Positions 830-60,725 of a DNA stretch of 64,000 nt are shown here, in pieces. The notes below the pieces were generated by a model that was not told the origin of the DNA, did no database searches, and saw only the letters and a list, made by a program, of their open reading frames with translations. This stretch comes from an uncultured Clostridia bacterium (lineage in GTDB: Bacteria > Bacillota > Clostridia > TANB77 > CAG-508): the NCBI GenBank assembly GCA_944391575.1, contig CALXUC010000002.1:25787-89786 (forward strand), given 5' to 3'. Each line of letters starts with the position of its first letter. The stretch's first letter is position 1. The translations under genes were made by a program, and so were the position numbers.

Positions 830-956
830 AATTATCTCCTTAGATATATCTCATTTAAATTTCACATATATCATATAACAATTTATGTAAAAAAACAAGA
901 GAAAAAAGTAAAAAAAATAAAATTTTGGCAATAACTCAGAATGTTCTTCTTAAAAG

Positions 957-1038
957 CTTGATATATAGCTATTTTTAGTCAAAACATAGCTAGGGTGACA
1001 CAATCCTGGTCTTGACTTACAAATAGCTATATATCAAG
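957..1038 (-). repeat. 82-bp nested-IR intergenic element, copy 1 (type I, orientation B)
   Basis: Terminal 18-bp inverted repeats CTTGATATATAGCTATTT/AAATAGCTATATATCAAG and a conserved core. Outer arms AACTCAG/CTGAGTT lie about 20-30 bp outside. Confidence 0.9.
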
Positions 1039-1145
1039 CTTTTATTTAAGATCTGCTGAGTTGTTACAAAATTTGATATAAATTTGTTCTTGCTTAATAT
1101 TATGTTTAATGTTATAATAATTATACATTTAAGAGGAGGTTACTT

Positions 1146-1607
1146 ATGGGAAAAGAAATTGCAAAAAATCCAGTAGCAAAACATAATTATACAATAATAG
1201 ACACAATGGAAGCAGGTATTGTATTAACAGGAACAGAAATAAAATCTATCCGTAAAGGTAGAGTAAATATGAAAAATAGTTATGCAATTATAAAAGATGG
1301 AGAATGTTTCCTTTTAGGTATGCATATTAGCCCATATGAGCAAGGAAATATTTTTAATAAAGATCCATTAAGAAGTAGAAAACTATTGCTAACTAAAAGA
1401 GAAATATATAAATTAACGGGATTAATAAAACAGCAAGGAATTAGTCTTGTTCCTATTTCAATGTATTTTAAAAATAATTATGTTAAAATAGAATTAGGAT
1501 TAGGAAAAGGTAAAAAGCTTTACGACAAACGTAGAGAAGAAGCAGAGAAAGATGATAATCTGTATATTAGAAGATATATGTTGGAGAAAAATAATCAGGA
1601 TTATTAA
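1146..1607 (+). CDS. smpB: SsrA-binding protein SmpB
   Basis: 153 aa. GTEIKSIRKG, SPYEQGN and LLLTKREI motifs are typical of SmpB. GAGGAGG RBS. Confidence 0.95.
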   Translation: MGKEIAKNPVAKHNYTIIDTMEAGIVLTGTEIKSIRKGRVNMKNSYAIIKDGECFLLGMHISPYEQGNIFNKDPLRSRKLLLTKREIYKLTGLIKQQGISLVPISMYFKNNYVKIELGLGKGKKLYDKRREEAEKDDNLYIRRYMLEKNNQDY

Positions 1608-1652
1608 TTTATAGTTACAATTCAGTAATAAAACATATAACTTTTGCAAAAA

Positions 1653-1734
1653 CTTGATATATAGCTATTTGCAAGTCAAGACCCGGATTGTGTCACCCTA
1701 GCTATGTTTTGACTAAAAATAGCTATATATCAAG
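1653..1734 (+). repeat. 82-bp nested-IR element, copy 2 (type I, orientation A)
   Basis: Full core. Outer arms are GTTACAATTCAGTAA (1614-1628) and TTACTGAACTGTAAC (1749-1763). Confidence 0.9.
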
Positions 1735-1878
1735 TTTTTATAAAATTTTTACTGAACTGTAACTAATTATATTTATTTTTTCACTTTACTACTTGATATT
1801 TTACATAAAATATAGTAAAATATAAAAGAATTTGTAACAAAAAAGTGAAAATAAATAAATTGAAGGGAAGTAATATTA

Positions 1879-58141: not shown

Positions 58142-58222
58142 CTTGATATATAGCTATTTGCAAGTCAAGACCCGGATTGTTAACCCTAGCTATGTTTTGA
58201 CTAAAAATAGCTATATATCAAG
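58142..58222 (+). repeat. nested-IR element, copy 15 (type I, A), second of a tandem pair
   Basis: Core lies 38 bp after copy 14. The spacer contains the ACATATAACTTT flank motif. Confidence 0.9.
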
Positions 58223-58391
58223 TTTTTAGTAAGTATATCCTAAAGCTATTTGCATTTTAAAATGAAATATAGTATAATGAAAACGAATTTTGTATTTTGA
58301 TATACTAAATACAAAATAAACATATTATATTCACATAATATTAATGTGAGCAATAATATATAGTAATACAAATTTGAAAGGAATGAATAAA

Positions 58392-60203
58392 ATGTGTGGA
58401 ATAGTAGGATATGTAGGAAATAAAAGTGCAAAGGAAATATTATTAGAAGGTTTATTAAAGTTAGAATATAGAGGATATGATTCCGCAGGATTTGCTGTTA
58501 TAAATGGTAAGAATATAGAATGTTTAAAGTGTAAGGGAAGAGTTAAAAATTTAAAAGAAGATAAAAAAATAGGTAGTGTAATAGGAAATTTAGGAATTGC
58601 TCACACAAGATGGGCAACTCATGGTGAACCTTCTACAAGAAATTCACATCCCCATTTAGATAATGAAGGAAAAATTGCAGTTGTACATAATGGAATAATT
58701 GAGAATTATGTTGAGTTAAAAAATTTCTTGCTAGAGAGAGGGTACGCTTTTTTATCAGATACAGATACAGAAGTTATACCAAATTTGATAGATTATTATT
58801 ACAAATTAAATGGTAATGAGAATTTTTTAAAAGCAGTAAAACAAGCTACAGATGAGCTTGTTGGAAGTTATGCTTTAGAAATAATCTCTACCCATAATTT
58901 AGGTGAAATAATTATTACTAGAAAAGATAGTCCTTTAGTAATTGGAAAAGGTGTGGGAGAAAATTATATATGTTCAGATGTTCCAGCTGTTTTATCTTAT
59001 ACTAATGTATTTTATTATTTAGGTGAAAGAGAATTTGCTGTTATTACTAAAAATGATATAAAATTTTATAATAATAATTTAGAAAGTATAAAGAAAGAAG
59101 AAAAAATAGTGGATTGGGAAAATTCAGCTGCTGATAAAGGTAATTTTGAAGATTATATGTTGAAAGAAATTTTTGAACAACCAAGAAAAGTGGAAGATAC
59201 TTTTAATATTGAAAATTTAAAAAGTTTAGATTTACCAAAAGAGTACTTAAATGATTTAAATAAAATAGTGATAGTTGCTTGTGGTACAGCTAAGAATGCA
59301 GGAACAGTAGCTAAAAATGTTTTTGAGAATTTATGTAGAATTGAAACTTTAGTAGAAGTGGCTTCTGAGTTTAGATATAGAAATCCTATTATAGATAATA
59401 AAACTTTAGCAATATTTATTAGTCAATCTGGAGAAACAGCAGATACAATAGCAGCTTTGAAATTAGCTAAATCTAAAGGTGCAAAGACTTTAGCTGTTAC
59501 AAATGTAAAAGGAAGTTCAATAACAAGAGAAGCTGATTACTCTGTATACACATTGGCTGGTCCAGAAATAGCAGTAGCTTCAACAAAGGCGTATACTTCA
59601 CAAATAGCATTATTAACTTTACTTGCTATAGACTTTGCAGAAAAATTGAATAGAGTAGATAGTAAAATTATTGAAGAATTAAGGGCAGAGTTACCTAATA
59701 TAGGTTCAAAAATTAATTTTATTTTAGAAAATAAGGAATTATATCACAATATTGCTAAAGATATTATCGAGAATAGAGATGTATTCTTTATAGGAAGAGG
59801 AATAGATTATGCAGTGGCAGAAGAAGGAGCTTTGAAGTTAAAAGAAATATCATATATACATGCTGAAAGCTATTCATCTGGAGAATTAAAGCATGGGCCA
59901 ATAGCATTAATAGAAAAAGGTGTGCCTGTAATAGGAATAATTACTGATGAAGATTTAGTAGAAAAATCTGTAAGTAATATGCAAGAGGTAATAAGTAGAG
60001 GAGCTAAAAGTATAGTAGTAACAAATCAAGAAATAGAAAGTGATAATTTTGATTATATTATAAATATACCTAAAATTAATAAATTATTATCACCAATATT
60101 ATCTGTTATACCATTACAACTCATATCATATTATGCTGCTAAAGAAAAATCTTTAGATGTAGATAAACCAAGAAATTTGGCTAAATCAGTAACAGTTGAA
60201 TAA
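58392..60203 (+). CDS. glmS: glutamine--fructose-6-phosphate aminotransferase
   Basis: MCGIVGYVG (Ntn Cys), two SIS domains, and C-terminal DKPRNLAKSVTVE. The start is placed at the Met-Cys. Confidence 0.95.
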   Translation: MCGIVGYVGNKSAKEILLEGLLKLEYRGYDSAGFAVINGKNIECLKCKGRVKNLKEDKKIGSVIGNLGIAHTRWATHGEPSTRNSHPHLDNEGKIAVVHNGIIENYVELKNFLLERGYAFLSDTDTEVIPNLIDYYYKLNGNENFLKAVKQATDELVGSYALEIISTHNLGEIIITRKDSPLVIGKGVGENYICSDVPAVLSYTNVFYYLGEREFAVITKNDIKFYNNNLESIKKEEKIVDWENSAADKGNFEDYMLKEIFEQPRKVEDTFNIENLKSLDLPKEYLNDLNKIVIVACGTAKNAGTVAKNVFENLCRIETLVEVASEFRYRNPIIDNKTLAIFISQSGETADTIAALKLAKSKGAKTLAVTNVKGSSITREADYSVYTLAGPEIAVASTKAYTSQIALLTLLAIDFAEKLNRVDSKIIEELRAELPNIGSKINFILENKELYHNIAKDIIENRDVFFIGRGIDYAVAEEGALKLKEISYIHAESYSSGELKHGPIALIEKGVPVIGIITDEDLVEKSVSNMQEVISRGAKSIVVTNQEIESDNFDYIINIPKINKLLSPILSVIPLQLISYYAAKEKSLDVDKPRNLAKSVTVE

Positions 60204-60445
60204 GTACTAAAATAATAGCACCGTGGAATTCCTAATAATCCAACAAAAACTGCTGTTAACAAGTTTAATCCAATATGAAAGTTGAAGCCTTGTGCAAAAA
60301 AATTTATTAAAAAGATTAAAAAACCACCTAATATAGAGTTTAAAATTAATTTAAGTATAACTTTTAGTGGGAGTATAAATACTTTTCCCATTATAAATAT
60401 AAAACAAATACAAGCGATGATAGTTAGTAATGCAGTAAAATCCAT
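60181..60445 (-). CDS. bofA: pro-sigma-K processing inhibitor BofA; needs a +1 shift (skip the C complementary to G60223) at an in-frame CGG
   Basis: ATG 60445 lies 8 nt after GGAGG. ...FHIGLNLLTAVFVGLLGIP|GAIILVLIQLLLI gives 89 aa. The uncorrected frame reads RCYYFSTYSTV... antisense into glmS, as far as 60131. Confidence 0.65.
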
Positions 60446-60509
60446 AATTTTTACCTCCATTAGTAATGTATATGATTGCTTGTATTTTTTATGCATAATT
60501 TTATAAAAG

Positions 60510-60591
60510 CTTGATATATAGCTATTTTTAGTCAAAACATAGCTAGGGCGCCACAATCCGGGTCTTGACTTGCAAATAGCTATATATCAAG
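60510..60591 (-). repeat. nested-IR element, copy 16 (type I, B)
   Basis: Full core, identical in its variable centre (GGCG) to copies 3 and 11. Outer arm CTTGAATTGTTAC. Confidence 0.9.
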
Positions 60592-60725
60592 CTTTTATTT
60601 AAGTATCTGCTGAGTAGTTACTTGAATTGTTACAGCTTTAAATAAGAGATATTAAAAATTTCTTGATATTTTCGCGATTTTATAGTAAAATAAATAATAG
60701 TGATTAAATATTTAGGAGGAATATA

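Follow-up and report, generated by a model that had tools for sequence, protein, structure and literature searches.

Short palindromic repeats of an uncultured gut Clostridia bacterium: a probable family of non-autonomous transposable elements with ISBst12-group ends

Short, non-coding repeats that are abundant between genes include the Correia/NEMIS elements of Neisseria, the RUP elements of pneumococcus and the ERIC/IRU sequences, all of which possess terminal inverted repeats (TIRs) and target duplications and form long hairpins that can affect transcripts. A family of comparable make-up occurs in a stretch of 64,000 nucleotides, here called the window, from an uncultured Clostridia bacterium (contig CALXUC010000002.1). 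The window corresponds to C2:25787-89786 of its own genome, G000, a metagenome bin of 1.84 Mb in 84 contigs with 27% G+C; the sequencing runs that contain the organism come from chicken-gut metagenomes. Like the repeats named above, the element is short, non-coding, intergenic and highly repeated, and it possesses TIRs, target duplications and a long hairpin. It differs from them in its probable transposase lineage of IS66/ISBst12 type with an 8-bp duplication, its nested perfect inner repeats, an apical window of 8 hypervariable nucleotides and a centre that is often inverted, while an effect on transcripts is only predicted. With a probability of roughly 85%, we regard it as a family of non-autonomous, miniature transposable elements with inverted repeats (MITEs) whose ends resemble those of ISBst12-group insertion sequences (ISs), which belong to the IS66 family. 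This reading is based on its target-site duplications (TSDs), on empty sites in related genomes and on the matching termini of autonomous ISs. MITEs with IS-like ends are a well-known kind; what is unusual here is the conserved hairpin core, the variable 8-nucleotide window and the flipping centre. The family is abundant and recently active, and it links uncultured gut Clostridia to a little-studied group of ISs.

Among the described members of the ISBst12 group, ISDge4 of Deinococcus geothermalis has the TIRs GTGACTACTCAGCA and GTAACTGCTCAGCA, a single transposase open reading frame (ORF) and the 8-bp direct repeat CCTCGATG (PMC12898284). The second of these TIRs is identical at 12 of 14 positions to the MITE end variant GTAACAACTCAGCA, and direct repeats of 8 bp flank both elements. 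The terminal repeat form GT(A/T/G)AC...TCAG(C)A is likewise shared with the group. The MITE differs from ISBst12-group ISs in its length of 140-150 bp, in containing no ORF and in an interior that is unrelated to the autonomous elements sampled.

The mobile unit is an element of 140-150 bp, and the 82-bp core is its internal palindrome, because the 8-bp duplications flank the outer arms and contigs of other copies diverge exactly at the ends of the copy at 1614-1763. When all copies were aligned on the core, conservation extended 29-39 bp further on each side, up to a left arm GTTACAATTCAG and a right arm CTGAATTGTAAC. The outermost part is a TIR of 12-14 bp, GT(T/A)ACA(A/G)(T/C)TCAG, which is followed inward by a spacer of 18-27 bp, present in G000 in two main types, X and Y, then by a perfect inner inverted repeat of 18 bp, CTTGATATATAGCTATTT, and finally by an asymmetric centre of 46 bp that together with the inner repeats forms the core. 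The arms of a pair are spaced 139-156 bp, and their variants co-vary at both ends (GTAACAACTCAG with CTGAGTTGTTAC, GTTACAGTTCAG with CTGAACTGTAAC); further variants in G000 are GTAACAACTCAGCA, GTAACTACTCAG, GTTACAGTTCAG and CTGAATAGTTAC. No ORF of at least 80 amino acids lies inside any unit of the window. Directly beyond the arms, 31 of 79 copies have the same 8 bp on both sides, and 42 of 79 do so when one mismatch is allowed, compared with no identical pair in a control shifted by 10 bp. Contigs of other copies, mapped on the window, part from it exactly at 1614 and 1763.

The original prediction, made from the letters of the window, had placed the termini at the 18-bp repeats and had proposed a search for TSDs. 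Such duplications were found, but they lie outside the outer arms, which are the actual termini. An 82-bp unit bounded by the 18-bp repeats was ruled out, as it has no flanking direct repeats and the AAAAG and CTTTT sequences on its two sides merely prolong the palindrome. A third, internal ATTGT-AC motif had also been proposed; it is indeed arm-like in alleles of the TA class (ATTGTTAC...), which make up about 30% of the copies, but not in the rest.

Genes of the sister species G001, which belongs to the same genus, are about 87% identical to those of G000. Both flanks could be placed in G001 for 99 loci, of which 51 look empty and 17 filled. Several of these filled loci contain separate insertions at positions that differ by a few bases, and every such insertion is flanked by a duplication of its own; filled sites at orthologous loci were therefore not relied on to test constraint. 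The site of the MITE at 928-1067 is also empty in G001, and it is empty in the close strain L140, whose smpB gene is 98.5% identical in nucleotide sequence. There the locus reads ...ATAAAATTTTGATATAAA..., with a single AAATTTTG, in place of the AAATTTTG, element and AAAATTTG of G000. Since the close strain lacks this copy and retains the single target, it was concluded that the family moved recently. The L140 contig does hold the MITE at 1614-1763, which is absent from strains whose smpB is 93% identical in nucleotide sequence and encodes the same protein. The within-species comparison covers this one locus, smpB; public contigs break at repeats. Taken as a whole, the copies are short and non-coding, have TIRs, are flanked by duplications of fixed length and have empty counterparts, and these are the structural features of a MITE. 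Insertion duplicates 8 bp of the target, and copies are present or absent between close strains and sister species.

Two further comparisons concern these loci. In L143, an ENA scaffold with 100% identical smpB, the sequence upstream of the core of 928-1067 runs into the left flank of another MITE locus, G000 C20:17127; this junction reflects either assembly across the repeat, giving a chimera, or recombination between copies. Comparison of window positions 22871-26406 with G001 C2:1343-1370 showed that about 3.5 kb are missing in G001, including the MITE at 23054-23195 and the ORFs at 23728-26122, and with the MITE at the edge of this indel a MITE-associated rearrangement is possible.

The source of the transposase was sought among related genomes. 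IS66-family DDE genes are present in 10 of 201 genomes of the same family, and the classical ones have ends that begin with GTAAGCG. Three single-ORF elements in related genera encode proteins of 503-535 amino acids with the domains PF03050 and DUF6444, and their ends are GTAACTATTCAGACT (L123, 1671 bp), GTTACTAGTCAGCC (L122, 1814 bp) and GTTACTAGATAATA (L113). Proteins from gut metagenomes that share 52-80% identity with that of L123 belong to elements with the TIR GTAACTATTCAG or GTAACAGTTCAG, and the 8-bp repeat AATTTTTT lies on both sides of one such autonomous element, L130. The arm variants of the MITE are identical to the TIRs of L123, L122 and L128-L134 at 10-12 of 12 positions. The agreement in TIRs and in duplication length suggests that a single-ORF DDE transposase of ISBst12 type, acting in trans, would catalyse the movement. 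With an interior that is unrelated to the ISs found, and with the gene missing from the three host bins, this partner transposase is a putative one.

Several observations weigh against the assignment to this MITE type. DDE_Tnp_IS66 (PF03050) was not found in G000 or G001, and G377, the third host genome described below, gave no match to the ISBst12-like protein P0001. The best TIR matches amount to 10-12 of 12 positions and do not continue as identity along a longer stretch, and past the TIR nothing inside the MITE resembles the autonomous ISs that were sampled. Copies are not enriched in convergent gaps between genes. Finally, a purely neutral model of decay after insertion does not predict the uneven diversity of the element, which is 0.23-0.25 at the termini, 0.02 in the core and 0.43 in the variable window. 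As regards the first point, G000, G001 and G377 are metagenome bins from which multi-copy IS contigs may have dropped out, so that absence is no proof. In relatives, the contigs of L113 (G031:C64), L123 (G179:C1) and L132 either end at the first base of the ISBst12-like TIR or consist of the IS alone; such ends show how ISs leave bins and break assemblies, which bears on the missing transposase. G000 encodes IS4/IS5-type transposases that have no MITE arms beside them, and an origin of the MITE as a simple deletion derivative of a sampled autonomous IS was ruled out by the interior, which resembles none of them.

The 18-mer CTTGATATATAGCTATTT gives 25 matches in the window at up to two mismatches, against 0.06 expected. 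The window contains 12 copies of the nested palindromic core, two variants with a different stem (type II) and two fragments, in agreement with what the original prediction had counted. Eleven cores are paired full units of 81-83 bp (starting at 957, 1653, 6230, 16034, 23083, 46850, 48082, 50591, 58023, 58142 and 60510), and the twelfth, at 49886-49963, has a short stem deletion. The type II units were found at 11307-11392 and 52466-52551, both with the stem sequence (G/A)TA(C/T)TTATATATTAATATTTT, and the fragments at 13167-13213 and 30808-30840. The units of the window are as follows.

928-1067, minus strand: full MITE of 140 bp; arms GCAATAACTCAG...CTGAGTTGTTAC; core 957-1038 with GGATTGT on the minus strand; TSD AAATTTTG / AAAATTTG, 7 of 8 positions identical.
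1614-1763, plus strand: full MITE of 150 bp with the longer Y arm type, lying 7 bp past the smpB stop codon; core 1653-1734, allele GTCA; arms GTTACAATTCAG / CTGAACTGTAAC; TSD 6 of 8.
6200-6340, plus strand: full MITE of 141 bp, X arm type; core 6230-6311, allele GGCG; perfect arms; perfect TSD AAGAATAG.
16004-16115, plus strand: MITE with left arm and core, right arm lost; left arm GTTACAATTCAG at 16004; core 16034-16115; no right arm found.
23054-23195, minus strand: full MITE of 142 bp; core 23083-23165 (83 bp) with the inner-stem variant TGAGCTTG; perfect TSD AATAATGA.
46821-46961, minus strand: full MITE of 141 bp; core 46850-46931; perfect TSD ATAAAATA.
48082-48163, plus strand: core without recognisable ISBst12-type arms; a separate promoter-like repeat module of about 59 bp lies directly upstream.
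49857-50002, minus strand: Y-type MITE of 146 bp; core 49886-49963 with a short deletion in one 18-bp stem; TSD ATTTATTA / ATTTATAA, 7 of 8.
50562-50701, plus strand: full MITE of 140 bp; core 50591-50673 (83 bp) with the inner-stem variant GAAGCTCAAG; perfect TSD GAAATAAA.
57994-58261, plus strand: two tandem cores (58023-58103 and 58142-58222) with partial or rearranged arms.
60510-60633, minus strand: core (60510-60591) with right-side arm sequences only, left arm lost; two tandem arm-like motifs extend up to 60633.
11307-11392, plus strand: type II unit with the shared central module AAGACCCGGATTGTTACGCCCCAGCTATG within the different stem TACTTATATATTAATATTTT; degenerate arm GCTACAATTCAT upstream.
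52466-52551, plus strand: second type II unit; arm-like GTTACAATTTGT upstream, near 52431.
13167-13260, plus strand: deletion hybrid whose left stem, of type I, is fused at AGCTATG with a right half of type II (13167-13213); arm-like sequences that abut each other come next.
30808-30840, plus strand: right-half core fragment CTATGTTTTGACTAAAAATAGCTATATATTAAG, overlapping the 3' end of the ORF at 29940-30818.

The copies are not confined to the window by local duplication. G000 as a whole contains 169 full core units on 47 of its 84 contigs, in both orientations (85 and 78), and since several contigs stop about 75 nucleotides inside an element, the real copy number is above 169. G001 contains 79 copies and G377 (CALXCD01), of another genus in the same family, about 70. 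A covariance model, R1, and pattern scans did not find the core in 398 other genomes of the order, which leaves these three as the only hosts among the genomes searched, and searches of plasmids, phages and viral contigs gave no match to the element. The assignment settles the annotation of about 170 intergenic repeats, or about 1.4% of the genome, that would otherwise be misread as sites of regulation or as RNA genes, and the repeats account for many contig breaks in the metagenome bins of the hosts.

The whole element is predicted to fold at -61.6 kcal/mol (z = -11.7), and the core alone has z = -7.7. Among 32 X-type copies, pairwise diversity is 0.23-0.25 in the terminal arms, 0.14-0.17 in the spacers and about 0.02 in the core outside the variable window; it reaches 0.43 at core positions 40-47 and 0.60-0.65 in the unrelated DNA outside the element. 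Double compensatory changes are present in 10 of 28 predicted stem pairs (e.g. CGTGAT...ATCACG, CTTGGT...ACCAAG and AATCAA...TTGATT), and the loop segments CCCGGATTGT and AGCTATG are unpaired yet conserved. All three host species share one core consensus, apart from the outermost bases of the stem and a few positions of the inner stem in G377, while spacers and arms differ among the three. In the MITE model, the core would be needed in cis or be selected in some other way, and its stems would stay complementary through templated repair within the palindrome or through selection for the hairpin. Variable ends around an invariant core make the family a natural system in which the cis requirements of such transposases can be studied.

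These data also bear on a proposal that would add to the MITE reading, namely that the 82-bp core is itself a functional module, either a structured RNA or a DNA hairpin (e.g. a terminator, an RNase III hairpin, a site of protein binding or one capable of inversion), which ISBst12-type MITEs would merely carry and which the host or the element would maintain once inserted. Support for it comes from a diversity about ten times lower than that of the termini, from the identity of the core within differing arms in three species of two genera, from the conserved unpaired loops and the compensatory stem changes, from the presence of the core centre within the wholly different stem of the type II units, and from the strand bias and the preference for positions past stop codons that are described below. 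Arguing against this proposal is that conservation may equally reflect mobilisation of only those copies whose core is intact, which is selection at the level of transposition; in addition, convergent gaps are not enriched in copies, both orientations are common, and Rfam has no match. We consider such a module unlikely, although it survives better than the other alternatives. The Rfam result answers the question whether the family was already catalogued there: with Rfam 15 only four tRNAs in the window reach the gathering score and the element has no match, and at an E-value threshold it attracts only plant microRNA hairpins far below their cutoff (31.6 bits vs 83).

The centre of the core is reversed relative to the asymmetric arms in 3 of 42 X-type and 5 of 19 Y-type copies of G000, and in 6 of 18 Y-type and 3 of 18 X'-type copies of G001, that is, in 7-33% of the copies depending on genome and arm type. 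One orthologous pair shares a rare inner-stem variant and has opposite centres.

The variability of the apical part, described in the original prediction as a hypervariable 4-nucleotide centre, is real but wider than 4 nucleotides. It comprises core positions 40-47, where pairwise diversity is 0.40-0.43 vs 0.02-0.04 in the remaining core. Among 1026 pairs of cores that are identical at the other 74 positions, only 11% have the same window allele. The commonest alleles are GTCA, GGCG, GTCG, TACA, TATA and TACG. They fall into three classes at positions 40-41 (GT, GG and TA), and every class has C or T at position 42 and A or G at position 43. Between some elements that are nearly identical, 6-7 of the 8 positions differ; such elements carry the variable window of another core variant, which points to patchy exchange between copies. 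A young sub-family of three copies has the allele TATACCCT in common; the variable window is therefore inherited and not remade with each jump, and re-randomisation at each transposition was ruled out. In the MITE model, the hairpin tip would be the least constrained part and free to vary, its alleles differing by transitions and by patches swapped between copies. The variable apical window and the flipping centre offer a compact case of the evolution of long palindromes in bacterial chromosomes.

A more specific proposal is that the core is a maintained hairpin cargo, conserved across genera while the ends decay, whose centre flips in situ and whose 8-nucleotide loop is kept hypervariable by a dedicated process. 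Damage or nuclease action at the tip of the extruded hairpin could be such a process, as could diversifying selection; the alternative is that the apical window is merely unconstrained. We hold this proposal to be doubtful, somewhat more so than that of a functional module in general.

The hypervariable loop would have another meaning if the repeats were a family of small structured RNA genes, with the loop serving as a specificity or guide sequence. The strong predicted structure with its covariation, the apical position of the variable window and a modest strand bias of 74 to 43 agree with this explanation, but the variable window is unrelated to the flanking or target sequence. The observed value, 6, did not exceed the permuted mean of 7.0 (p = 0.76), by which a guide or target-matching role of the variable tetranucleotide was ruled out. 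Covariation of the tetranucleotide with other columns, which the original prediction had proposed to examine, proved to be weak, with a mutual information of at most 0.19 bit that is barely over the permutation maximum. The insertion polymorphism of copies with duplications, the lack of an evident conserved promoter within the element and the lack of an Rfam match likewise speak against RNA genes, which we judge very improbable.

Least probable of all is a host repeat like the repetitive extragenic palindromes (REPs) and bacterial interspersed mosaic elements, spread by recombination or by a REP-associated tyrosine (Y1) transposase (RAYT) and not by a DDE enzyme: the copies resemble such repeats in being abundant intergenic palindromes, and the genome yielded no DDE partner, but REPs lack target duplications and need a Y1 transposase, whereas the present element has 8-bp duplications, which Y1 transposition does not make, and termini that match ISBst12-group TIRs, and no Y1_Tnp (PF01797) gene was found in G000 or G001. 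Between the MITE/REP-like and structured-RNA possibilities named in the original prediction, the TSDs, empty sites and matching IS termini thus favour a MITE, with other boundaries than those proposed. The cognate transposase that was to be searched for elsewhere in the genome did not appear, neither an IS66-type gene in the three host bins nor, in G000 and G001, a TnpA(REP)-like one.

The genomic context of the MITE copies was analysed with a simple ORF-based gene set with 85% coding density. Placement between genes, previously described as strict, applies to 168 of 169 cores, but the fragment at 30808-30840 overlaps the end of an ORF. Co-directional, divergent and convergent gaps contain 120, 30 and 12 copies, respectively, in line with the total length of each class. 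Within co-directional gaps, 87 of 117 copies are closer to the upstream stop codon (p = 1e-7), with a median distance of 58 bp from stop to core, and GGATTGT runs along the sense strand in 74 copies, compared with 43 that have it on the antisense strand (p = 0.005). Such a distribution agrees with counter-selection of insertions that fall between a promoter and the start codon, and a role as transcript-end hairpins would fit it as well. Selection keeps the copies out of genes, and in co-directional gaps, where they sit just past stop codons, the long hairpin (about -60 kcal/mol as RNA) may plausibly work as a terminator or transcript-end hairpin. In both orientations the element is followed by T-rich sequence. 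A simple terminator scan passes over the MITE hairpins, as their loop exceeds its rule. In the RNA runs, the element gathers contigs that stem from many copies, and in the true metatranscriptome the organism is too rare to be informative. The same scan scores as a terminator the abutting arm-like sequences of the deletion hybrid at 13236-13260, GAATAGTAAC-AAGTT-GTTACTATTC, whose 11-bp hairpin precedes a T run.

Related repeats occur in G000 beside the type I units. Type II units, with the AGTACTTATATATTAATATTTT stem, are often located inside type I cores or fused to them (C8:7117, C30:17210, C32:19450-19604 and C24:16881), which suggests nested insertion or recombination at the common AGCTATG motif. 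The 18-bp inner repeats also enclose other interiors. A family of about 177 bp is found at C4:24021-24190, C8:46618-46794, C39:4549-4726 and C48:7234-7412, a 106-bp pair at C4:43866-43972 and C38:7388-7494, and mini-palindromes of about 40 bp at C1:102696-102740 and C4:2714-2753. Some of these alternative-interior units sit within Y-type arms, and they have no Rfam match. With several interiors found inside it, the inner stem serves as a common scaffold into which different cargo sequences are set.

A distinct repeat, about 59 bp long, TTTTGCAGAGTAAAACTATTCATAATAAAATAGAGTTAGAA(G/T)TTCTTAATATTTTTTAC, which follows ...TAAATATAAA, lies at 48007-48065 of the window, upstream of the core without arms, and has 29 copies genome-wide (e.g. 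at G000 C16:13358 and C41:3434). The one copy tried in Rfam gave no match. The repeat looks like a promoter-type module; some of its copies are located directly before a ribosome-binding site and start codon, and others precede a palindromic module (GGAAAGAGTTCAAGTTTACCTTGGAAGGGTGCCGTAAAAAATATTTAGAA) or the MITE core.

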